Of a stretch of DNA of 64,000 nucleotides, positions 11,276 to 54,704 are shown piece after piece. The DNA is from Pirellula sp. (lineage in GTDB: Bacteria > Planctomycetota > Planctomycetia > Pirellulales > Pirellulaceae). The number at the start of each line of letters is the position of its first letter. Position 1 is the first letter of the stretch. The stretch covers positions 7,094 through 71,093 of the forward strand of contig JAYTVM010000219.1 of assembly GCA_043743995.1 (NCBI GenBank), given 5' to 3'. The position numbers and the translations under genes are program-made. The notes under the pieces are model-generated. The model ran no database searches. It was not told the origin of the DNA and saw only the letters and a list, made by a program, of their open reading frames with translations.

Positions 11276-12682
11276 ATGCCTACCATGAAAACGTCTTCCC
11301 TGCTTTGCCTGCTCCTCTGTGTTATTCACTTCGACATTCGACTCTGCGCTTTCGAAAATGAGACTTCGTCCAAGCCCAACATCGTCTATTTTCTGATCGA
11401 CGATTTAGGCTACGCGGACTGTGGTTTTAATGGCGGTACTGACATCCGCACACCAAACATCGACAAGCTTGCGAGAGAGGGTGCGATCCTAAAGTCGTTT
11501 TATGTACAACCTGTCTGTTCGCCGACTCGAGCCGCTTTGATGACGGGACGCTACGCAACGCATACGGGTGTTTACAACGTTGTGCGTCCAGGTGCGCCAT
11601 GGGGATTGCCGCTGGCCGAACGCATTTTGCCGCAAGTGCTGAAAGATGCGGGCTACTCGACCGCGATTTGTGGCAAGTGGCACTTGGGAGAGTTTCAACA
11701 AGCGTACCTACCAACCAAGCGAGGCTTCGATCACCAATATGGGCATATGTTCGGAGCACTCGACTACTTCACCCATATCCGCGATGGGAAATCAGATTGG
11801 TACCGAGACGATTTGCCGATCAAGGAAGAAGGCTACACCACTAACTTAGTTGCGAAGGAAGCGTGCCGTTTGATCAAGGATCGGCCTGCAAACAAACCGA
11901 TGTTCCTCTATGTGCCATTCAATGGAATACATGGCCCGCATCAAGTTCCCGAAAGCTACATGCAACCCTATCAGAACTTGCCTAAGCTCCGACAGACCAT
12001 TGCCGGAATGCTGTCGGCAGTTGACGAAGGCATTGGACAAATTACTGCAGCCTTGGTCGCAGCAGGAATGCGCGATAACACTCTCATTATCTTCTCCAGT
12101 GACAATGGCGGACCAGCACCTGGCAAAGCAACGATGAATACGCCACTTCGAGCGGGTAAAGCAACAGTCTATGAAGGAGGTGTTCGGGTTTGTGCTTTTG
12201 CCAACTGGCCTGGAAGAATCAAAGCGGGCATAACGATTCAGGAGCCGATGCACGCGGTCGACTGGTATCCGACACTCACTAAACTTGTTGGAGCACATCT
12301 CGAACAAAAGCTGCCTCCGGACGGGCTAGACATATGGCCTGTGCTCACGCAAAATGCAAAGTCGCCCCACGATGCTATCTTGCTGCTTGGCAACAAGCCA
12401 GGAGTGTCAGCCATTCGGATGGGAGACTGGAAACTGTTAGTAGGTGCTTCGGACACGGATTCCGAGGAGCAAGTCGACAACCCAAAGAACTCGGGCAAGT
12501 TGGAGCTATATAACCTTGCCGATGATATCTCGGAGTCAAAAAACCTCTCGAATGCCCAACCTGAAAGAGTGAACGCGATGCGGACTCGACTCGAAGCCAT
12601 GCTCAAGAACGCTGTACCGCCGGGGGATTCACTTCGCGACTCAAATGTGGAAACAAAAAAACAAAAAAAAGGAAAGCAATGA
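11276..12682 (+). CDS. Arylsulfatase (S1 family)
   Basis: PNIVYFLIDDLGY, CSPTRAALMTG (CxPxR formylglycine motif), GKWHLG, SSDNGG. Confidence 0.95.
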   Translation: MPTMKTSSLLCLLLCVIHFDIRLCAFENETSSKPNIVYFLIDDLGYADCGFNGGTDIRTPNIDKLAREGAILKSFYVQPVCSPTRAALMTGRYATHTGVYNVVRPGAPWGLPLAERILPQVLKDAGYSTAICGKWHLGEFQQAYLPTKRGFDHQYGHMFGALDYFTHIRDGKSDWYRDDLPIKEEGYTTNLVAKEACRLIKDRPANKPMFLYVPFNGIHGPHQVPESYMQPYQNLPKLRQTIAGMLSAVDEGIGQITAALVAAGMRDNTLIIFSSDNGGPAPGKATMNTPLRAGKATVYEGGVRVCAFANWPGRIKAGITIQEPMHAVDWYPTLTKLVGAHLEQKLPPDGLDIWPVLTQNAKSPHDAILLLGNKPGVSAIRMGDWKLLVGASDTDSEEQVDNPKNSGKLELYNLADDISESKNLSNAQPERVNAMRTRLEAMLKNAVPPGDSLRDSNVETKKQKKGKQ

Positions 12683-35388: not shown

Positions 35389-35773
35389 ACGATTGGGGCT
35401 GGAAAATGGTACAAAAAAGTAAGCTGAATGATTGTTCGGACGACAATGTGCAATCAACCAATGCCTTTGATAAGCAAATTGGTTCCAAAGCACAAGACTT
35501 TGTGCGAATAACAGGGCGCACGCTGAGCAGCCGTGTTTAACTGATCGAGGCCCTAGAGCCTAGATCGAGGACCTCCGGAAACTTGTGACATAGGAATTGC
35601 GCGCTTTGCAGCGGGCAGTTTTTTGGACCATAGCAAAAAGATCGATGTGTTTCGCTGAGATTTCAGCAATAGTCAGATAAAGCAATGATTCTAGAGAGAA
35701 CCTTGGCGAGCGGATCGATTTCCGTTACACTTCGAGCCATCTGAATGGCCGGAACGGCAATTTAGACCTAAAT

Positions 35774-35848
35774 CGGGCCGTAGCGCAGCCTGGCTAGCGC
35801 GCTACCTTGGGGTGGTAGAGGTCGTGGGTTCGAATCCCGCCGGCCCGA
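35774..35848 (+). tRNA. trnP: tRNA-Pro (anticodon GGG)
   Basis: CGGGCCG/CGGCCCG acceptor stem, CTACC-TTGGGGT-GGTAG anticodon arm, GTTCGAATC T-loop; CCA not encoded. Confidence 0.95.
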
Positions 35849-37118
35849 TTTTATTTTTCTTTGTCAGGAAGCGACAAACAGTGTCATTTCCTTTCGTTTT
35901 GTTGATGGAGTGCGGCACTTGGCCCGTCGATGCATTGTCAGGCAGTGCCCCACTTTGTCCCTCAGCGACGCCTGAAATGCAGCGCCCGTGCAGCGCATGC
36001 TCATTTGCTGCTCTCACTGGCATTTTGATCTTCGCGACCGCTTTGGCCTGATCGTCAATGCCAATATGCGTGTATCTTAGGGTCATCTTAATGTCGGAAT
36101 GGCGCGCCAGCTCTTTGGCTTCTGGCAAAGAAGCTCCATTGCGAAGCAATTCGGTGATGTGCGTATGCCTTCCTGCCGCATGGAAATCGGCAACCCCCTC
36201 TTCGGTTACATAGGGGATCCCGATTCGTTCTAAGTCCTTCTTAACCATCACTGCCCCGGCCCGAATATCCAGTTTTGGAAACAATTTGGCTGTTTGCGAT
36301 AGTCCTGACAGCCAACCGTGCAGTTGTGCCACTAGCTCTGGGTGCAATGGCAACACGTCCTTCCGGCGGTGTTTCGATGCACCCGCCTCAACGGTTATCG
36401 TCGGTGGATTCGCCTGTAGATCAAAACTACGCGGCGTTAAGCTTGCAAGCTCATTCTTTCGTAGCCCAGTCATGTAAGACAGGGTATAAATACGGGCACG
36501 CGTTTCTCCGTCATACCGCTGAATTGACTTTCCGCTGTCTCTAGCTGACCGGACAAGCCTTGAAAATTCCTCTGCCGATAGGGCCCGGCGCTTCCTGCGA
36601 ACGTCCACTTCGGCATTGAGTGGTTTGAGTGTAGCGATTGGCGATCGTGTCAAACGGGCCGTTTGAACGCACCAATTGCAAAACATGCCAAAAGCTTGGA
36701 GATAGTGGTTGTAGGTCCGAAAACCGAAATCGGGTTCCTTCTGAAGGGTTTGCATCACTTCGAGAATTGATTCATCGCCGATATCGGCAAGACATTTCAA
36801 ATTACCAAATTCGACGATCCGCCGAATACGATTCATGACAATCCGCACATACTTTGCGGTATTGTCCTTTATACTCGATTCGAACGCCTTCAGATGCTCT
36901 TCCATGGGCGATTGCTTATGCTCCTGCGCTTTTTCAAGCTCAGGATCTATCAAGCCAGTCTTTCGAAGCAGAGCTTCGTTTTCGAGCTTGGCGGCAAGCT
37001 GCTCGGTGAGCCCTTTATCGGTAAATCCTTGTAGCGTTTTACGCTTGCCACAATGGTCGACGTATTGAATCGTATACGGTTCGTTCTTAACTTTGCGTCG
37101 TTTGAAAATCGATGCCAT
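35802..37118 (-). CDS. Tyrosine recombinase / phage-type integrase
   Basis: MTGLRKNE (R), ASKHRR (K), DFHAAGRH, ARHSDIKMTLRY (H, Y); last codons are antisense to the tRNA. Confidence 0.93.
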   Translation of the reverse strand: MASIFKRRKVKNEPYTIQYVDHCGKRKTLQGFTDKGLTEQLAAKLENEALLRKTGLIDPELEKAQEHKQSPMEEHLKAFESSIKDNTAKYVRIVMNRIRRIVEFGNLKCLADIGDESILEVMQTLQKEPDFGFRTYNHYLQAFGMFCNWCVQTARLTRSPIATLKPLNAEVDVRRKRRALSAEEFSRLVRSARDSGKSIQRYDGETRARIYTLSYMTGLRKNELASLTPRSFDLQANPPTITVEAGASKHRRKDVLPLHPELVAQLHGWLSGLSQTAKLFPKLDIRAGAVMVKKDLERIGIPYVTEEGVADFHAAGRHTHITELLRNGASLPEAKELARHSDIKMTLRYTHIGIDDQAKAVAKIKMPVRAANEHALHGRCISGVAEGQSGALPDNASTGQVPHSINKTKGNDTVCRFLTKKNKIGPAGFEPTTSTTPR

Positions 37119-45832: not shown

Positions 45833-46234
45833 CTACGAGATCCTAATCTCTTCGATCAATGGCGAATCCTGGCGCCCTTCCAAGTGGCCCGCTTCCTGTA
45901 TCCACGGTACACGGTGTCGGATAATTCCAGCAAATAGGCTTATGCAAGGACGTATTTCTTCGTTTAGTTTCTTGCCGTTAATGCGAATCGTGGTTGCTCC
46001 AAACTGCAATTTAATTCCTTCGGAAGGATCGAACTCGGCGCGTTCTAGCCACGGGTAGCCAATACACGTAATGTTGCCGGTGCGGTGCCTCAGTTCCAGC
46101 ATAAGTGCACGGTCACGCGTACCGCGAAGCCAGCCAAAGGTTTGAAGATTCTCCTCCAACTCGGCTTCTTCCGTTCGGCGACCGGAGTGATCATCATTTC
46201 GCCCAACCAGTCGGTTCAAGATACTATCGTTCAT
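45833..46234 (-). CDS. Hypothetical protein overlapping the relaxase stop
   Basis: FGWLRGTRDRALMLELR...YPWLERAEFDPSEGI; 11 nt overlap with the relaxase end. Confidence 0.7.
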   Translation of the reverse strand: MNDSILNRLVGRNDDHSGRRTEEAELEENLQTFGWLRGTRDRALMLELRHRTGNITCIGYPWLERAEFDPSEGIKLQFGATTIRINGKKLNEEIRPCISLFAGIIRHRVPWIQEAGHLEGRQDSPLIEEIRIS

Positions 46235-48839
46235 TCGCGAGCTCCTCTCGTTTTGTTTCTATTTGAGGTGCGCGATAAGCAAGATCCATGCCGGGGCGAT
46301 AAGGAGGTACCAAGTCGATCGCGGATAAACGTTGTTCGCTTTCAGCGATCGCTTGCCTTAGCAATAGCTTGCTGTCCGTATAAATCGTCGCTCGGTTCTC
46401 ACCCCGCGAGACTGATACATAAAACTGTTCCGGTGAAGATGCCGCGAAGGATTCACTGGACTGTCCGATGAATACCTGCTTGACCGATTTTCCTTGTGAA
46501 GCATAAGAAGTTACTACGTAGCCATGTGTCAAATGCCCAAATTCCCTTGCGATGGTCCAGCCGTTTTCGGCGAGTTGTATGCCGCCACCTTTGGTAAATC
46601 CTTTGATGGTGTAAAGGGCGCCATTGTTCAATCGATGTGCGCCATCGGCAGTTGTGCCATTATGCGTGATCCGAATCCGGTCACCCGCCGCAAACTCTGT
46701 GTGAGATGTGTGGAAGGTCTGAAATCGATCCGCAAACTTTAGGGTTGCGTCTGAGAGATCCTTGGCTTCGAGACGTGCTCCACGTTTTATGCCCGGTGCG
46801 TTTTGATGAAAAACGACTACGTCGGTTGGAGCATAGTTCACCGAATCACCACGTTCCGCTTCGGTAAATCTCGCATTCGTTAGAATCGCAAACTTGTGCG
46901 AGTCCTTTCCTAGGAGCTTAGCCTTTTGCAGCCGCTCACGAATCTCGGCAGTGATGCGTGCTCCTTCTGCATGCGTAGGAGAAACGGCAAGAGCTGTTTG
47001 CCCACTTGTAACGGCTGCAACAAAGTCCGCTGCCATTACTTGATATCGCTCCCTACGATCCAACTCCTTGACCCAATGCATTGAACTGAGCTTGTCGAAA
47101 CCCGCGAGTGTTTTACCTTCACTGAGGAACTTGACTGCGGCTTTGTAGTCACCCGATTGACGCTTGATCTCTTTGACCTCGGCAGGCACAATACCTGCTT
47201 CGGTTTCCAAAAGTTTCAGAGTCGAGCCTCGTTCCACCGAGGCATGCTGCTTTCGATCTCCCGAGAGCAAAACTCGTGCGTTAATGCGTTCTGATAGTTC
47301 GAATAGTATGTTCATGGTCTTTGCACCAAGCAGACCAGCCTCATCTACCCATATCAACTGGCCGCGCGCTTCCTGCTGGAGTTTCTTGTCCACCAATAGC
47401 CGTGCAACTGTGTCTGCTTCATCAAACCCGGCAGCTCGCAATACGCCTCGACTAGCATCCGCCGATGGAGCAAAGGCGAAGACCTTGATGCCGGTATTCT
47501 GGATCGCTTCAACTGTTTCTTGCATAAGCGTTGTTTTGCCCACTCCTGCAGCGCCTCGCAGTAACGTGACACGGTCACGTGAACCCAAAATATGCCTTAC
47601 CGCTGATTTCTGCTCTGCATTCAACCAGTCGCATTTGAATGAATCATAGTTTCCGAGAATCGGTGAGCATTGCCCCCTCCCCTGCCTTGCAAAGCCAATG
47701 ATCTGCCTTTCTTCCGCAAGCACCTCCTGTGTGGTAACAACCATCTGACCATCGCGATCGACTCGTATAAGCGGGAGGCTCTTCGATTGTTCTAGGACAT
47801 CCTCCAACGTTGCCTTACCAACACTTTGACGAAGGGCCAGAGCAATCAACTTGCGTTCGGGAACGACCGATTGTCGTTCAAACGCATGTAGCTTTGCGTA
47901 CTCAAGCCCAGTCGCTGCTGCCGTACCATCGTCTGGCTCCGAATCGCTACCAAATTTTCGTTCTAGCAATTCAAGTTGCTCAAGTTCGGCAGTAGACATC
48001 CGCTCTCGCCATTCGGTTTGTAAATCAGTGAAGCTCAATTCTTTTTGCTTGCGGCTTCGGGTTCTCGCCCCAAGCTCGGATTTGACCTCGGCATTTTCAA
48101 TTCCCTTTTCCCTTGCCAGATCTTCGATCTCTGCGGTACGTCGAGAGAACTTCTTAAGCGTAGATGCATTGATGCCCGCCAACTCCCAGTTTTTGTCCGT
48201 TCGATGAATAGGCAATCCAAGATCACTCAATCGATGCGCAAATCGAGAATGGAACACCGCTTCAAAGTAGGGTGCATCTCGCTTCAGCCCCCGAAATTGT
48301 CCCGCCTTGAAAGTTTTTTCTTGCTCGTCCCAGGTCGTATTAAATACAAAGCAATGTGCATGCAGATGCGGGTCTGGAACTCCGTCGACTGGCCGAGCCG
48401 TAAAGTGAATGAACTCGCCCCAAACCATATTGCCAGTCGTGCGATTCTCGTTCATGCCGTTCTTGCGAACTCGAGTAGCCATTTCGGCTTCCATGTCGTG
48501 CATAGTGTCATCAACAGAATCGCGAAACGCCTCAAGTATGCGATCGTCGCGAGTAACGGCATACATTAGGGACACACTTTTTGGTACATGGAAATTGAAA
48601 TCATAGCCAACGGTTCGATCCGTTTTGTTCCGAAGCGTTAGCGGTGCACCATTACTCGGGTTCTGATTATCGCAGAGCGAATCCCAATCCTTCTTTGCAA
48701 CAGGTCCGGATAAGCCCAATTGTGTTGCCGCCATGCCCCGCCAACGACCCTCCAACTCCTGGCCCTCGGAATAATAGTCGGCAGTGCTGTAATAACTCTT
48801 TGCACCTGCGGCATGTGCGTTTTGGATGATTCGTAACAT
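46224..48839 (-). CDS. MOBF (TrwC/TraI-like) relaxase-helicase
   Basis: N-terminal YYSTADYY catalytic tyrosines, GYDFNFHVPKSVS, HFTARPVDGVPDPHLHAH (HUH), helicase GAAGVGKT, VDEAG, HGYVVTSYASQGKS. Confidence 0.95.
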   Translation of the reverse strand: MLRIIQNAHAAGAKSYYSTADYYSEGQELEGRWRGMAATQLGLSGPVAKKDWDSLCDNQNPSNGAPLTLRNKTDRTVGYDFNFHVPKSVSLMYAVTRDDRILEAFRDSVDDTMHDMEAEMATRVRKNGMNENRTTGNMVWGEFIHFTARPVDGVPDPHLHAHCFVFNTTWDEQEKTFKAGQFRGLKRDAPYFEAVFHSRFAHRLSDLGLPIHRTDKNWELAGINASTLKKFSRRTAEIEDLAREKGIENAEVKSELGARTRSRKQKELSFTDLQTEWRERMSTAELEQLELLERKFGSDSEPDDGTAAATGLEYAKLHAFERQSVVPERKLIALALRQSVGKATLEDVLEQSKSLPLIRVDRDGQMVVTTQEVLAEERQIIGFARQGRGQCSPILGNYDSFKCDWLNAEQKSAVRHILGSRDRVTLLRGAAGVGKTTLMQETVEAIQNTGIKVFAFAPSADASRGVLRAAGFDEADTVARLLVDKKLQQEARGQLIWVDEAGLLGAKTMNILFELSERINARVLLSGDRKQHASVERGSTLKLLETEAGIVPAEVKEIKRQSGDYKAAVKFLSEGKTLAGFDKLSSMHWVKELDRRERYQVMAADFVAAVTSGQTALAVSPTHAEGARITAEIRERLQKAKLLGKDSHKFAILTNARFTEAERGDSVNYAPTDVVVFHQNAPGIKRGARLEAKDLSDATLKFADRFQTFHTSHTEFAAGDRIRITHNGTTADGAHRLNNGALYTIKGFTKGGGIQLAENGWTIAREFGHLTHGYVVTSYASQGKSVKQVFIGQSSESFAASSPEQFYVSVSRGENRATIYTDSKLLLRQAIAESEQRLSAIDLVPPYRPGMDLAYRAPQIETKREELANER

Positions 48840-49297: not shown

Positions 49298-49372
49298 CTT
49301 CCTGGATAGACGACCGGCCAATTTCGCCGTTGTCGGCGGCATGTCCGCCGCGTGACCTGTGCGGGAAGTACT
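49298..49372. repeat. Structured direct repeat, copy 1
   Basis: CTTCCTGGATAGAC ... CTGTGCGGGAAGTACT; the 16 nt box is identical to 52559-52574. Confidence 0.8.
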
Positions 49373-49460
49373 CTTTGGCTCTCCTTTGAATACGGTCTCA
49401 GTCGGCCATAAGTGGAATCTTTTGTTGACACGTTTAGCCGACTAGGTATTTACTACGACA

Positions 49461-49844
49461 ATGCTCGTAAAGGAAATCAACCTCACCCTGATGCTCACGC
49501 CCGATGCAATCGCATGGCTCGAAGTCGAAGCCAACGAATCGGGTGCTTCTGTCACACATTGCATCAGCGGACTATTAAATGCTCTTGCAAGTCCTGAGAC
49601 CAATGAGGATACCTTGGTTGACGCCTTGCTCGAAAAATCCCGATCGTATTTTCCACGCGTCATGACCTTGGATGAACAAGACGAGCTTCAGGAGGAAGTC
49701 ATCGATTTTCTTTGCATGCGAATTATCGAAGTGAACTCAAACTCGGTCTTTGCACAATTGTCGGCGACCGAGGTCCAAGACATTCGCGACAAGCTCGTTC
49801 GTCGAAGCAAAATGGTTTGGATTTCGCAGCCACCGAGGAACTAG
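49461..49844 (+). CDS. Hypothetical protein with ribbon-helix-helix-like N-terminus
   Basis: INLTLML-TPDAIAWLEVEANESG-ASVTHCISGLL strand-helix-helix pattern. Confidence 0.5.
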   Translation: MLVKEINLTLMLTPDAIAWLEVEANESGASVTHCISGLLNALASPETNEDTLVDALLEKSRSYFPRVMTLDEQDELQEEVIDFLCMRIIEVNSNSVFAQLSATEVQDIRDKLVRRSKMVWISQPPRN

Positions 49845-49902
49845 ACAACGACTTCTACGAAGCCTGCCTCCTCCTCGCAATGCAGCACGACCCCTTAAAA
49901 AC

Positions 49903-50049
49903 ATTCCCGAACGGGAATATTTACTCAGCAACATCATATTGTGCTCGCCGTAAGGTAATAATATTCCCTTTCGGGAGTATTTTGTTGAATTCTTATTGAA
50001 ATCATGGTACTATTGTCCATAAACAGCAAATACGTTCCCGAACGGGAAT
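49903..50049 (+). promoter_or_regulatory. Sigma70-type promoter with three palindromic operators upstream of the hip operon
   Basis: TTGAAT (49985-49990)-N17-TACTAT (50008-50013) with TGn extension; operators ATTCCCGAACGGGAAT 49903-49918, ATTCCCTTTCGGGAGT 49963-49978, GTTCCCGAACGGGAAT 50034-50049. Confidence 0.75.
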
Positions 50050-50061
50050 GCTTCATGAGAG

Positions 50062-50292
50062 ATGAACGTGGGATCAATCGGAGAATTCGTCAGAAATCGC
50101 CGGAAGGCAGCCAAAATGACACAGAAGTCCCTGGGCGAACTAGCGGGCGTTGGCACTCGATTTATCTCCGAGTTGGAGCGAGGAAAAACCACTGTTCGGA
50201 TGTCAGAGGTTGAAACTGTCCTTTCCGTCTTTGGCAAAGCGCTTGGTGTTGTCGATCGTGATCGCATCGTGGAGGAACCTGATGACGAATAG
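50062..50292 (+). CDS. HipB-like (y4mF/Xre) HTH antitoxin-regulator
   Basis: FVRNRRKAAKMTQKSLGELAGVGTRFISELERGK. Confidence 0.88.
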   Translation: MNVGSIGEFVRNRRKAAKMTQKSLGELAGVGTRFISELERGKTTVRMSEVETVLSVFGKALGVVDRDRIVEEPDDE

Positions 50293-50620
50293 GCATGGAC
50301 TCGTACGAATCGATGGCAAGGATGCAGGCAAGTTATCCGAAAGCGAGGACGGCTTTGAGTTCGCTTACCTCGCCACATGGTTGGAGACACAGAGCGCCAC
50401 GCCAATTTCACTAACGATGCCACTGCGCGCAGAGCCATACGTTTCTCGCAATCTGCATCCATTTTTTCAAAACTTGTTGCCGGAAGGATGGTTGCTTGAA
50501 CTCGCAACCAAGAAGCTCAAAATATCAAAAGATGATGCCTTTGGATTATTGCTTGCGACTTGTGCCGATTGCATAGGTGCAATTGAAATCCTTGCGATCA
50601 GCAAAGAGGTAGCGTCATGA
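50282..50620 (+). CDS. HipA N-terminal domain protein (HipS-like)
   Basis: GFEFAY, ISLTMPL, LHPFFQNLLPEGW, DCIGAI. Confidence 0.9.
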   Translation: MTNRHGLVRIDGKDAGKLSESEDGFEFAYLATWLETQSATPISLTMPLRAEPYVSRNLHPFFQNLLPEGWLLELATKKLKISKDDAFGLLLATCADCIGAIEILAISKEVAS

Positions 50621-51540
50621 CCAAAACCTGTTTTGTTTGTTTGGGGAGCGGGGCGGACAAAAGTCACTATCATTCCCGGTGTGCGAAAGCGCTCTTTGGC
50701 AGCACAACCGTACCGCGTCTCGACATTGAGGTTGCCAAACTGCATACCGCTGCACTCGCGATGGTGGGGAAAACTACTCTGTCGGGTGCACAGAAAAAAA
50801 TCTCGGTCAACATCTCCGCAGATCGGCAAACACTTCAAGTTGCCACTGGGCGAGGATTCTATATCCTCAAGCCGCCGACAGAAACATATCCACACTTGCC
50901 CGAAAACGAGCATACTACCATGTTGCTCGCGAAGCTGACCGGGTTAAATGTTGGTCAATTCGGACTCGTTCGAATGGAGACGGATCGAATCGCGTTCCTT
51001 TCGAAACGATTTGATCGCAATGAAGATGGCAGCAAGCTCCATCAAGAAGACTTCTGCCAACTGTCGGAAAAATCTCCCTCCGCAAAGTACGATGGATCGG
51101 CAGAACTATGCGCGAGAATTGTCAAACGATTTGCCACCGAGCCCGGTATTGAACTACTGAAGTTATTCGAACAACTCGTCTTTTCATGGTGGGTAGGAAA
51201 TGGCGACCTCCATCTGAAAAATCTGTCGCTGCTGATCGATGCCCAAGGGGCCATAAGACTTACCCCAGCGTACGATCTTGTTTCGACGATCCTAGTCATC
51301 GATGATGATCCGCTTGCTATGCCGATAGGCGGCAGAGACCGCAAACTGCAACGGTCAACCTGGATCAAGTTCGCATCCTATTGCGACATCGGTATCAAGG
51401 CTGCGAACCGAGTGCTCGACCGTCAGATAAGTTTGTTACCAAAGGCAGAGGCGATGTTGGATCAGTGCTTTCTTCCGGCGGAAATGAAAACAACGTTTAA
51501 ACAACACATCACTGATCGCACTGCCGAACTCGATTCTTAG
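50617..51540 (+). CDS. HipA-family kinase toxin (HipT-like)
   Basis: LSGAQKK loop, HLPENEH, HQEDFCQL, GNGDLHLKNLSL, TPAYDL. Confidence 0.92.
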   Translation: MTKTCFVCLGSGADKSHYHSRCAKALFGSTTVPRLDIEVAKLHTAALAMVGKTTLSGAQKKISVNISADRQTLQVATGRGFYILKPPTETYPHLPENEHTTMLLAKLTGLNVGQFGLVRMETDRIAFLSKRFDRNEDGSKLHQEDFCQLSEKSPSAKYDGSAELCARIVKRFATEPGIELLKLFEQLVFSWWVGNGDLHLKNLSLLIDAQGAIRLTPAYDLVSTILVIDDDPLAMPIGGRDRKLQRSTWIKFASYCDIGIKAANRVLDRQISLLPKAEAMLDQCFLPAEMKTTFKQHITDRTAELDS

Positions 51541-51549
51541 CTGATGTCG

Positions 51550-52506
51550 TTAAACCGAAATCCGTTCGACTATATTTCGTGTGACTCGGCGTTGTCGTCG
51601 GTCGTATAGCATGGTCACACGGCTATCGGAATGCCCAAGTAAGTACTGCACATCTTCCAACGGGACGCCTTGCAACAATAGGTCCGTTGCCGTCAGACTT
51701 CGAAAGCTGTGGGGCGAGATGATGGTTGGCAGTCCGGCATTCTTGAGCCGACGCTTGACCATTCGACAAATATCAACGCCCGTAATTGCCATTTCCGAAA
51801 ACAACCCTCGCCGATCCATGGTCGGAAACAATGCCAGCTCCATTGAATTGCCGCGAATCGCAAGATATTCGAGCAACAATAATTGCAGATCGTGCCGCAC
51901 CGGTATTGAACGACTCTTACCACCCTTCTCACTGAATCGTAATGCGTACTGATTGCCCTCATCCACCATGTCTTTCACTCGCAGTTTTGCAACGGCTCCA
52001 GCTCTGGCTGCGGTATAGATCAGAACGGAGAGTAGTACTTTGTCACGAACGTCGATGAGCGATTTGTTGCCGATCGATTCGAGTAACTTCCTCGCTTGAT
52101 CGGTCGAAATCTCCGGAGTCTTGCCCTCGACTGTCGAATATCGCTCGGTGCGAACCGAAGCGGCAGGATTCAGCAGACACACATGTCGAAGTACCAAGCA
52201 GTCAAAGAATCCGCGAATCGCCGACATATGAAGCTTTTTCGAAGGCGGCGACAGTTTGGTAAGTTGATCAAAGTAGTTGCCAACCATTCCGGGCGTGATG
52301 CTAGACAGATTCGACTGGATCGGTTCAACCCATTTCAGAAACGAGCGTACAGCCCGAAGATATGCAGTGCGAGTGTGCGGATTGCGGATTTGGCCAGAGA
52401 AGAACTCATCCCAAGCAAACGTCCCCTGCGAACCTACCGACGAAACCATGATTGGAATCCTAGCCGCACTTGATATCAAAACATTTTTGACTTCCACTTC
52501 CTGCAT
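51550..52506 (-). CDS. Second tyrosine recombinase (XerD/Int family)
   Basis: RNPHTRTAY, TAARAGA (R), EKGGK (K), PHSFR, LLGHS, MLYD; AGGAG RBS before ATG 52506. Confidence 0.92.
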   Translation of the reverse strand: MQEVEVKNVLISSAARIPIMVSSVGSQGTFAWDEFFSGQIRNPHTRTAYLRAVRSFLKWVEPIQSNLSSITPGMVGNYFDQLTKLSPPSKKLHMSAIRGFFDCLVLRHVCLLNPAASVRTERYSTVEGKTPEISTDQARKLLESIGNKSLIDVRDKVLLSVLIYTAARAGAVAKLRVKDMVDEGNQYALRFSEKGGKSRSIPVRHDLQLLLLEYLAIRGNSMELALFPTMDRRGLFSEMAITGVDICRMVKRRLKNAGLPTIISPHSFRSLTATDLLLQGVPLEDVQYLLGHSDSRVTMLYDRRQRRVTRNIVERISV

Positions 52507-52574
52507 AGACAACTTGCTCCTAGCAATTGTCGACGGCAATGCTCTGCCGTCGCGTCATCTGTGCGGGAAGTACT
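52497..52574. repeat. Structured direct repeat, copy 2 (overlaps recombinase RBS and start codon)
   Basis: CTTCCTGCATAGAC ... CTGTGCGGGAAGTACT with two internal hairpins. Confidence 0.8.
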
Positions 52575-52930
52575 TCTCTTCCCTCCAATCGTTCGTATTG
52601 ACTATTGTCTTTTCGATTTGTGAGCCATCGAAGGACGCCGTCCGCGAATGAGGCAATCAAGTGATGCTGTTCGCCGATTAGCTCAATCTCGCTGTCGAGC
52701 ATGATACGAACTGGCGGTCGATCGATTTTCGCAAGCTCCGGCGCATCGATACCGATCTGCATTCGACCCGTTGGTGCGAGTTGCGTTGGCGTTAGCCAGA
52801 TGGTGCCATCTGCGTGAACACGATACTTCTCGAAATAACCGAAGAGCCCATCGGTTTGGTACCACTCCCCGGAATAGGATTCCGAGATTGAGTTGCCGAA
52901 TTCGAAATACAAATAGTCAGGAACGGCCAT
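52520..52930 (-). CDS. Hypothetical protein, phage-like
   Basis: PDYLYFE...YQT...YRVHADG...ASFADGVL resembles a widespread phage hypothetical family (recalled, not searched). Confidence 0.55.
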   Translation of the reverse strand: MAVPDYLYFEFGNSISESYSGEWYQTDGLFGYFEKYRVHADGTIWLTPTQLAPTGRMQIGIDAPELAKIDRPPVRIMLDSEIELIGEQHHLIASFADGVLRWLTNRKDNSQYERLEGREVLPAQMTRRQSIAVDNC

Positions 52931-53021: not shown

Positions 53022-53450
53022 TTAGTTTGTCGCGGGTTCGCGAAGAAGTTCGAATGCCAATCCGAGTTGCTTGGCGACTTTGGACAACCGATCATCAAAG
53101 GTAATAAGCGTTGCGTTTGACCTGCGGCAGACAACCAAATAGAAGCAGTCGTAGAGATGGTGTTGCGTCTGGATCGACAGTGCGATCGCATCCTCGAGCA
53201 GTTCATTGTAGTCCCATAGCTCAATGATTCGGTCCTCAACATGCGATAGCCAAAGCTGACACCATGCGGCGCATTCGTCTTTCTTTGCCCGCTTCTCACG
53301 CACCGTTCGCGAAATGGTGCCAAGTACTTCAAGCTTAATGATTTCTGGTGCGATGAGCTTTTCCTGTAGTCTCAGAAATGCTTTTGCTTCCATCGAGCCA
53401 GGTTCACGCACATACCACTTGGCAGCGACATTTGCGTCGATCACCATCAT
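53022..53450 (-). CDS. PIN-domain (VapC/FitB-like) toxin
   Basis: VIDANVAAKW, APEIIKLEV, LYDCFYL, LITFDDRL. Confidence 0.9.
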   Translation of the reverse strand: MMVIDANVAAKWYVREPGSMEAKAFLRLQEKLIAPEIIKLEVLGTISRTVREKRAKKDECAAWCQLWLSHVEDRIIELWDYNELLEDAIALSIQTQHHLYDCFYLVVCRRSNATLITFDDRLSKVAKQLGLAFELLREPATN

Positions 53451-53689
53451 ACGATTCCTTCCCGCATCGCACGGATGTATGCAACGCTGCTTGGGAATAT
53501 GCCATGCTTTGATGCGACCTGATCTAGATGCTGGTCAATCTCTTCCGCCAATCTATGTTGCCTAGCCAATGCCGCTTCTGACAGTACTCGCTTCAACTCA
53601 TGTTCGAGACTGACGCCACATTTCTTGGCGTTGTGTCGATGCTGTTCGACAACCCATTCATCGACGTTTCGGATTCGTAATTCAGTCAT
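53447..53689 (-). CDS. FitA-like ribbon-helix-helix antitoxin
   Basis: MTELRIRNVDEWVVEQHRHNAKKCGVSLEHELKRVL; ATGA overlap with the toxin. Confidence 0.85.
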   Translation of the reverse strand: MTELRIRNVDEWVVEQHRHNAKKCGVSLEHELKRVLSEAALARQHRLAEEIDQHLDQVASKHGIFPSSVAYIRAMREGIV

Positions 53690-53831
53690 GGCAAAACCCC
53701 ATCGTTGTGACTCTACGTTGACTTTGCCACAGACGCCAACCGGTGTCAACGAAAATCAACTCGCCGCATTTGTTCGATTAGTGCGTTGTTGATTGGATTG
53801 ACACACCACCAAGCACGCTAAATAACCTCTT

Positions 53832-54704
53832 TTATTTAGCGTCCGATGATTGCTCCGTTCCTCCTCGCCGTTGGACTAAGTCATCCATCAAGTTTGGGAC
53901 AAATCTCTCACTAAAACCTGATGCAATTGCTATAGCAAACAACGCGAATGAATTGCCTTCGTTATTTACGAATCCAAGGACAATACCCGACTTAACTACG
54001 AAAAAGACAAAAATCGAGCCCACGATTGAAATGAGAATCCGCGAACAACCGACCAAGCAATTCGTTAATTTGTCTGCATCGATATCAATATCTATCCTCT
54101 TGAATCCTGTCGCAACTGACAGAAATCCTCCCATCGCACCGCAACAAGCGATATCCAAGTAGTTGCCCGCCGTATCTGAATCGGGCCAAGCGTTAAAGAA
54201 GAAATACCGCAAGAGCAATACACAGCAAACGACACACAGAGAGCTGAGGGTGTATTGTAATCTGCCTTGTACTGCCCTCGTTCGCAAAACCCGCTGTTCA
54301 GCTTCGTCAAGAATTTTTATGGCTACTTCCTCTAGCCCACGAAGGTTGGTCGCAACCGCTCTTGCCACTTGACTCGTGATTTGTTCGCATTCTCCAAGAT
54401 TGTTGGGTAAATAAGAAGTGACTTTGGAAACGTGTCGAAGCAACTTCGCGTTGCGTTCGTAATACGAGTCAATGCCTGGCATCGAATGATCATACTCAAC
54501 GTAGATTGCATCGATTGTTCTGTAGATAACATATTCGGGACGCTGCACATAAATGCGTTTCACGATTTCACCCGAATTGTCGTTCCCTGCAATCCGAAAT
54601 TGCATTGGCTTTCTCAATCCATCATCGCCGACTGGTGGGGCCGTTTCTCGTCCGACCGGCGTTTCTTCGGGTTGAACACAAGTTTTCTTTTCTTCACTGG
54701 CCAT
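53832..54704 (-). CDS. Hypothetical membrane protein (about 4 TM)
   Basis: C-terminal TM bundle with GAMGGFLS and ASGFSERFVP; start uncertain. Confidence 0.7.
   Translation of the reverse strand: MASEEKKTCVQPEETPVGRETAPPVGDDGLRKPMQFRIAGNDNSGEIVKRIYVQRPEYVIYRTIDAIYVEYDHSMPGIDSYYERNAKLLRHVSKVTSYLPNNLGECEQITSQVARAVATNLRGLEEVAIKILDEAEQRVLRTRAVQGRLQYTLSSLCVVCCVLLLRYFFFNAWPDSDTAGNYLDIACCGAMGGFLSVATGFKRIDIDIDADKLTNCLVGCSRILISIVGSIFVFFVVKSGIVLGFVNNEGNSFALFAIAIASGFSERFVPNLMDDLVQRRGGTEQSSDAK

Follow-up and report, generated by a model that had tools for sequence, protein, structure and literature searches.

What is the DNA element that stands on both sides of a toxin-antitoxin (TA) and recombinase module in a planctomycete genome, and what is it used for? 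The question is raised by a stretch of 64,000 nucleotides from Pirellula sp. (GenBank assembly GCA_043743995.1, contig JAYTVM010000219.1, positions 7,094 to 71,093 of the forward strand), hereafter the window, in whose coordinates all positions are given. A preliminary description of its sequence had pointed to two direct repeats, at 49298-49372 and 52497-52574, with differing interiors that fold alike. The repeats were proposed to be either attC-like folded recombination sites of an excisable cassette or an antisense RNA pair controlling the recombinase. Both repeats belong to an undescribed and well-supported family of structured motifs, each folding into a three-way junction (3WJ). The best reading of the 3WJ is a strand-specific folded-DNA recombination site, which we hold tentatively and stop just short of calling probable.

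Two three-way junctions in the window

Copy 1 (49298-49372) and copy 2 (52497-52574) both lie on the plus strand, with the coordinates and sequences first described. The 14-nt box CTTCCTGSATAGAC matches the window at 49298 and 52497 only (chance expectation 0.62), and a third similar site at 12167 requires two mismatches. The 16-mer CTGTGCGGGAAGTACT is likewise confined to 49357 and 52559 (chance expectation 0.23). A gapped-pattern search of the whole 8.07 Mb genome recovered exactly two copies, both in the window. In each copy, the two boxes pair as an outer stem of 12-13 pairs, which encloses two hairpins; the sequences of these are not the same in copy 1 and copy 2. The individual stems named in the preliminary description are present, though alternative registers shifted by 1 nt compete at the junction. 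Fold energies with RNA parameters are -33.8 kcal/mol (z -2.95) for copy 1 and -37.4 kcal/mol (z -6.15) for copy 2, and -16.3 and -20.6 kcal/mol, respectively, with DNA parameters. The minus strand folds worse than the plus strand in both. The Rfam covariance models (c4, int-alpA and others), a comparison that had been suggested at the outset, gave no match at E<=10 between 48500 and 53500.

Copy 2 is of a canonical type that covers the Shine-Dalgarno sequence and start codon of an Xer-like tyrosine recombinase gene on the minus strand (51550..52506, 318 aa). The ATG is at 52504-52506 and AGGAG is the reverse complement of 52518-52522, in agreement with the preliminary description. The protein starts with MQE, whose codons lie inside the 3WJ, and is the sole member of its family in the genome. 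Copy 1 is of a stand-alone type with a G at position 8, which turns the ATG into ATC as had been noticed and leaves a G8·G mismatch in the outer stem. The HipB-S-T genes and recombinase expected between the copies are recognized by Pfam, with HipB at 50062-50292 (HTH_3, 3.9e-9), HipS at 50282-50620 (Couple_hipA, 6.6e-31) and HipT at 50617-51540 (HipA_C, 1.2e-48), all on the plus strand. The segment 50062..51540 (+) thus has the composition of a tripartite HipBST system, with a helix-turn-helix antitoxin, a HipA N-terminal-domain protein and a HipA C-terminal kinase.

Covariation and strand preference

Covariation is strong in all three helices. An alignment of 40 sequences has standard pairs in 92.6% of cells compared to 79.4% in column shuffles, with double-sided changes in 18 of 24 pairs (133 cells). 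None of 500 shuffles attained any of five measures, and sliding the 3' partner by 1-3 columns lowers the paired fraction to 37-52%. The first alignment, of eight sequences made with MAFFT and not fitted to a model, was 95.8% paired with eight double-changed pairs. In the outer stem, C4-G changed to U-A ten times, and position 1 occurs as C-G, A-U, U-A or G-C. The covariation of the outer stem implies base pairing between the boxes, which makes them more than two binding sites for a protein.

The outer stem also contains the pairs U6·G and U10·G in 34 of the 40 copies, replaced by C-G or U-A in most others. The model strand is more stable than its complement in 39 of the 40 copies (mean difference 6.2 kcal/mol), because the two U·G pairs become C·A mismatches on the complementary strand. 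The remark that G-T pairs favour the plus strand thus extends from the window to nearly the entire family. Similarity between loci starts and stops at the edges of the outer stem. The model strand is usually antisense to the flanking genes, no plus-strand promoter-like site was found, and the left flank (upstream of position 1) is unrelated among the 40 copies; a plus-strand RNA is disfavoured for these reasons. The antisense RNA pair of the preliminary description is not supported, on the last two grounds and because most copies are not situated at a recombinase gene.

A motif family of mobile elements

The family comprises 42 matches, 40 of them distinct, from genomes and metagenomes of Planctomycetia, with elements of 54-78 nt. 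An exact-box scan of metagenome contigs provided five further copies with an identical fold in all, and the first covariance model found more in the loci L007 and L010 and in the genome G156. A second covariance model run over 401 genomes of the class identified 18 carriers with 1-3 copies each. None of the four other genomes of the window's own genus carries the motif. A few of the weakest model matches (e.g., L149-L151) are doubtful members, and one candidate, L118, was rejected as it sits inside a coding region. A box pattern with three mismatches matched 400 genomes of the phylum about as often as a reversed control did, which amounts to noise, and a blastn-short search for second copies of the upstream regions in 80 homologue loci returned almost nothing. 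One contig (L160, G677:C622) has two copies in the same orientation, at 1585-1644 and 1830-1901, which are 245 nt apart and the closest approach to an array.

About 17 copies overlap the ATG of an Xer-like recombinase gene whose protein starts with MQE, and about 23 stand alone with boxes and helices intact. All neighbours are of the kind that stabilises mobile elements, and they include TA operons of seven kinds (VapBC, MazE-PIN, ParDE, Phd-ParE, HigBA, AbiE and HipBST), the Xer-like or another tyrosine recombinase and, in four loci, a serine resolvase with a WGR protein. Typically, 0-30 nt separate the 3WJ from the stop codon of the gene upstream. In the four resolvase loci (L145, L147, L148 and L156), the serine resolvase and small WGR-domain protein end 0-8 nt from a stand-alone 3WJ, and in L145 and L156 a Phd-type antitoxin gene is on the other side. 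SprT-like proteins recur beside the module (Pfam; L119 4311-4970, L004 7021-7707). The loci L007 and L010 (6920-10890) are about 90% identical, with sequences that part precisely at the stop codon of the Xer-like gene and come together again about 4 kb further on. The 3' end of this gene hence bounds variable cargo. An interpretation of the two loci as different cassettes beside one site was rejected, since they are orthologous.

The recombinase and its canonical unit

The recombinase is complete, with a Phage_int_SAM_1 core-binding domain at residues 42-107 and a catalytic domain (Pfam). Its best PDB matches are XerA (8e-14), XerC and XerD. The protein scores below the equivalog cutoffs for XerD (115.8 bits vs 329.6) and XerC (103.7 bits vs 335), and its kinship to both is at the family level only. 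With the IntI model TIGR02249 (integrase_gron), it reaches 59 bits against a cutoff of 265, and the XerD, XerA and XerC models score higher. Relatives in Planctomycetota number in the thousands. Among the 120 closest proteins, 55 have the MQE start encoded within the 5' box. The motif was expected at the starts of homologous recombinase genes, and six of the seven MQE-type homologues examined on their contigs have it over the ATG. These are three of the four closest homologues examined, with L126 as the exception, and all three more distant ones (P0037, P0043 and P0100).

The canonical unit consists of a dif-like palindrome, a TA operon, often a small open reading frame (ORF), the 3WJ and the Xer-like recombinase, in this order, with the recombinase start M-Q-E encoded in the terminal 10 nt of the 3WJ. 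At least 11 loci have the 11-6-11 palindrome, perfect or nearly so, at a distance of about 115-125 nt upstream of the antitoxin. It has arms of RYGMTAAATAA, a spacer of AAGAGG or AGGAGG and dif-like inner ATAA/TTAT. The palindrome is kept whatever the TA family, and the DNA beyond it is unrelated between loci. A role as TA operator was rejected, given that the palindrome is common to loci with VapBC, MazE-PIN and ParDE and is situated upstream of the -35 region. Its spacer is Shine-Dalgarno-like on the TA sense strand. In the window, the palindrome is perfect (ACGCTAAATAA CCTCTT TTATTTAGCGT, 53815..53842), unique in the genome and forms the outer end of the conserved module. The layout of the 28-bp XerC/XerD-dif site (11-bp arms, 6-bp spacer, inner ATAA/TTAT) is found in this palindrome and not in the 3WJ. 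Planctomycete plasmids with this recombinase family have a single member each, and its gene directly follows the palindrome (pEP7_03, pPL17-1), an arrangement that fits an ancestral resolution-type role for the palindrome.

A possible recombination signature at the junction

The closest relative of the window module is L122, with a recombinase 74% identical. VapB, VapC, ORF136, HipB/S/T, the recombinase and TrwC are common to both, at gene identities of 50-74%. The L122 order is palindrome, VapBC, an ORF and, further on, HipTSB in reverse, the 3WJ and the recombinase. The window, read on the minus strand, has palindrome, VapBC, ORF, 3WJ, recombinase, HipTSB in reverse, ORF127 and 3WJ. In gene order, the window block from 3WJ to 3WJ is a circular permutation of the Hip-3WJ-recombinase block of L122, opened at the 3WJ. 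DNA homology between the two loci ends where copy 2 has its right edge, and a 3WJ precedes HipBST in the same orientation in both. A second case of direct copies is found in the complete genome G156 of another family, where they are 2.2 kb apart around palindrome, ParD, ParE, ORF124 and recombinase. The TA family between palindrome and 3WJ varies (VapBC, MazE-PIN, ParDE) despite homologous palindrome, 3WJ and recombinase, and this variation is cassette-like. The two copies in the window are themselves dissimilar. Copy 1 has G8 as in stand-alone copies such as L007 and copy 2 keeps the ATG, and their interiors differ as much as those of unrelated members, with copy 2 resembling L122 and L123.

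We suggest that the 3WJ is used as DNA in a folded single-stranded (or extruded) form, with the template strand of the neighbouring genes as the relevant strand. The tyrosine recombinase would act on it in a manner resembling that of IntI with attC or of XerCD with the folded CTX attP. A circle carrying a 3WJ, ORF127, HipBST and the recombinase might have recombined with a resident stand-alone 3WJ, which would create two direct copies in one step. Such a scenario would explain both the G8 of copy 1 and the divergent interiors, and the direct copies could again excise the 3.2 kb module. The family, its fold, its strand bias, its genomic neighbourhoods and the permuted order are observed, whereas we infer, for DNA over RNA by indirect arguments, the kind of molecule, the enzyme that acts on it and the event of excision or integration. 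The attC-like hypothesis of the preliminary description thus stands in part. It gains from the motif at homologues' starts, the covariation, the antisense strand, the G156 layout and the permuted order of L122, and it loses from the missing arrays, from boxes that are not those of attC and from the persistence of an oriT-like rival.

Several observations weigh against a folded recombination site. Most loci have one copy, and cassette arrays were not found in the window (two copies), in four other carriers (one copy per genome), within ±7 kb in G551 (single copies) or around the multi-copy genomes. An empty site was not recovered when the left flank of the G156 module was compared with 30 relatives (one genome per species). 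Some stand-alone copies, those of the serine resolvase-WGR loci, have no Xer-like gene within 1.5 kb, and conversely the recombinase genes of L003 and L126 start with MQE and have no 3WJ. Both genes keep CTTCCTGCAT, with similarity to the 3WJ ending directly after the ATG, and could be natural losses of the 3WJ or recombination products. The DNA energy parameters yield a small strand difference for the two window copies, and the paired fraction of the alignments fitted to the model (A3 and A4) is inflated by that fitting. Finally, the palindrome is the obvious double-stranded site of the recombinase family, so the 3WJ may have another purpose. That mobile elements of Planctomycetia carry a second, integron-independent system of folded single-stranded recombination sites is a wider and more doubtful proposition, though a possible one. 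In such a system, an Xer-like enzyme with its start codon within the site would recognise a three-way junction on the template strand and employ it to move itself and TA cassettes between integrative mobilizable elements (IMEs), plasmids and chromosomes.

The mobile element around the module

Read outward to inward, the window unit consists of the palindrome, VapBC, ORF136, copy 2 and the recombinase. The VapB (FitA-like ribbon-helix-helix; 53447-53749) and VapC (PIN; 53022-53450) genes on the minus strand, both recognized by Pfam, are the TA cassette of the canonical unit. ORF136 (52520..52930, minus strand) encodes a conserved small protein 67% identical to the corresponding ORF of L122, and its final 18 codons extend into copy 2 (52520-52574). 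Its homology to the L122 orthologue stops at residue 101, about 50 nt short of the 3WJ. ORF127 (49461..49844, plus strand) has no equivalent in L122 and no Pfam or NCBIfam match, which leaves the label of a ribbon-helix-helix-like protein without family support. Three HipB operator palindromes, TTCCCGAACGGGAA, are located at 49897-50049. They resemble the outermost stem of the 3WJ (CTTCCyG ... CGGGAAG), which could be a coincidence or reflect cross-binding by HipB.

In relatives, the genes downstream of the recombinase are those of DUF1232, ParB, a VirD4-like coupling protein, AlpA and a large integrase. Since this backbone recurs in the window, where it ends at the tRNA-Pro(GGG) gene at 35773-35849, the module represents the distal terminus of an IME inserted at tRNA-Pro. 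The tRNA gene overlaps the 3' end of the large integrase ORF (35802-37118), probably at attL of the IME. An attR copy of the tRNA 3' end, with 12 nt or more, was not found elsewhere in the window, and direct repeats between the two IME ends were not found. The backbone also encodes a TrwC (MOBF) relaxase-helicase (46224..48839, minus strand; Pfam). The dif-like palindrome and the position at an IME end are two features that the preliminary description did not contain.

Alternative explanations

The most serious rival is an origin of transfer (oriT)-like role. The 3WJ would be nicked or terminated on one strand, either by TrwC or by the Xer-like protein as a relaxase of the tyrosine recombinase type (like MpsA, TcpM and MobK). 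Its two copies would then stem from relaxase-mediated integration or accretion of elements. We consider both the role and this origin of the copies unlikely, yet worth serious attention. The reverse complement of the 5' box, [A/G]TTGTCTATGCAGGAAG (also given as [A/G]TTGTCTATG), is found in copy 2, L122, L123 and L140 and recalls the nic region of R388, TATTGTCT/ATAG (PMC4814116). The GTCTAT motif is on the worse-folding strand though, and the putative nic is 2 nt from stem 2 instead of 8 nt 3' of the hairpin as in R388. Copy 1 lies 460 nt upstream of the TrwC start, and TrwC is able to recombine two oriT copies by itself (PMC3264647). Against the rival, L126 has TrwC without a 3WJ, and the ATTGTCT that precedes its own TrwC is the better nic-like sequence. 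In its favour, the IMEs L124, L127, L128 and L129 encode ParB, a VirD4-like coupling protein, AlpA and the large integrase, and the stretch covered in each has neither TrwC nor another recognisable relaxase. The known tyrosine-recombinase-like relaxases have an oriT that adjoins the gene on its upstream side and abounds in inverted repeats (PMC6414798, PMC8152469), and the position and inverted repeats of the 3WJ fit this pattern. The 3WJ is also low-copy and strand-asymmetric, like oriTs. However, the known relaxases of this type (MOB_M: MpsA, TcpM, MobK) have a catalytic domain without a core-binding domain (PMC8152469), and the recombinase keeps its core-binding domain and thereby falls outside the MOB_M definition. 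The plasmid homologues furthermore adjoin replication genes, on plasmids typed as non-mobilizable.

An RNA in the sense of the flanking genes is rather improbable and ranks next. Such an element, located between the TA operon and the gene after it, would fold back to hide the Shine-Dalgarno sequence and AUG of the recombinase from read-through translation, or end or stabilise the upstream mRNA. The AUG within the outer stem in about 17 copies, the Shine-Dalgarno-like AGGAG at the tip of stem 2 in several and the sense strand of copy 2, which still folds well (-33.7 kcal/mol, z -5.1), are consistent with occlusion. The distance of 0-30 nt between upstream stop codon and 3WJ is terminator-like, and the co-directional TA operon, small ORF and recombinase make co-transcription plausible. 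A sense-strand mRNA element is nevertheless disfavoured because of the two C·A mismatches conserved in the 12-bp outer stem of 34 of the 40 copies, each repairable by one substitution, and because of the many stand-alone copies, about 23 in number, which retain boxes and helices with no recombinase after them. The sense strand is the less stable one in 39 of the 40 copies and has no U-tract, the near-invariant 12-nt boxes exceed the needs of a simple occluding hairpin, and copy 1 has no co-directional upstream gene.

The folded transferred strand could also serve an incoming IME in conjugation as a single-strand initiation (ssi) signal or an Frpo-like promoter, which we regard as very unlikely. 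Leading-region genes of F and IncI plasmids are expressed from the transferred strand. The favoured strand of the 3WJ is the template of the neighbouring TA and recombinase genes, an orientation as in leading regions. TA genes are typical leading-region cargo, and the 3WJ occurs on IMEs with relaxase or coupling-protein genes. Yet a 3WJ that overlaps a start codon cannot be the promoter of that gene, and its length of about 65 nt is far below the roughly 300 nt of Frpo hairpins. No -35/-10-like boxes were seen, and copies also occur beside resolvase modules with no transfer genes in view.

Least probable is that copy 1 is no more than the degraded start of another recombinase gene, since lost, or that both copies are a plus-strand antisense small RNA pair; the ATC in place of ATG and the better-folding plus strand would suit these ideas, but copy 1 matches the family model as well as copy 2 (70 vs 67 bits), the lack of a plus-strand promoter and the unrelated upstream flank speak against a transcript as described above, and the relic was rejected on the lack of similarity to the recombinase N-terminus on its left and the existence of conserved stand-alone copies under purifying selection.

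Comparison with known systems

Whatever its function, the 3WJ is a new structured motif, supported by 40 copies and by the covariation of each helix. As a marker of module boundaries, it aids the annotation of IMEs in a poorly studied phylum.

The oriTs of MpsA/SGI1, TcpM/pCW3 and MobK/pIGRK are comparable to the 3WJ as cis sites of about 60-125 bp with multiple inverted repeats, directly upstream of a gene of the tyrosine recombinase family on an IME. The MOBF oriT of R388 shares an octamer match to its nic region, and the IME encodes a coupling protein. The retained core-binding domain and a nic-like motif on the weaker-folding strand with another geometry set the 3WJ apart from all of these. 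Single-recombinase Xer and plasmid resolution systems (XerS/difSL, XerH/difH, Cre/loxP) have a palindromic site immediately upstream of the gene, as seen on pEP7_03 and pPL17-1. The inner arms ATAA/TTAT of the palindrome are those of dif, and a TA operon adjoining a resolution system is known from parCBA-parDE of RK2. In contrast to such systems, the IME subfamily has a TA cassette between palindrome and gene, and the 3WJ is an extra structured element without a counterpart there.

The 3WJ shares with the attC sites of IntI the conserved outer inverted boxes around a variable interior, in which structure and not sequence is kept. Both have a strand-specific fold with the favoured strand antisense to the cassette genes, and in both the site starts where the preceding gene stops, at its stop codon or across it. 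Both typically carry TA cassettes and have a tyrosine recombinase encoded next door. Unlike attC, with boxes of RYYYAAC and GTTRRRY and a hairpin with extrahelical bases, the 40 copies have boxes of CTTCCTGCATAG and CTGTGCGGGAAG and a three-way junction in which two T·G pairs are conserved. Unlike in integrons, the Xer-like recombinase has no IntI signature (59 bits vs 265), the site overlaps the start codon of the recombinase, and there is usually one site per module with no arrays. The attP(+) of CTXφ is similar in the combination of an Xer-type recombinase with a branched single-stranded DNA fold as a would-be substrate, on an element that becomes single-stranded at one stage, which for the IME is its conjugative transfer. 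CTXφ uses the host XerCD, whereas the recombinase is encoded here by the element, and the 3WJ fold has no obvious dif-like 11-6-11 duplex, with a separate dif-like palindrome about 1 kb away.

To our knowledge, folded single-stranded DNA substrates for tyrosine recombinases are known from two systems only, integron attC and CTX-type phages. If the 3WJ works as proposed, it would be a new variant of this folded-site recombination and provide a compact new pair of recombination site and enzyme. It could also explain the swapping of addiction modules among planctomycete mobile elements. A third, unrelated folded-site system, with a three-way junction, an Xer-like enzyme, TA cargo and conjugative elements, would then indicate that the solution found in integrons and CTX-type phages has evolved repeatedly.

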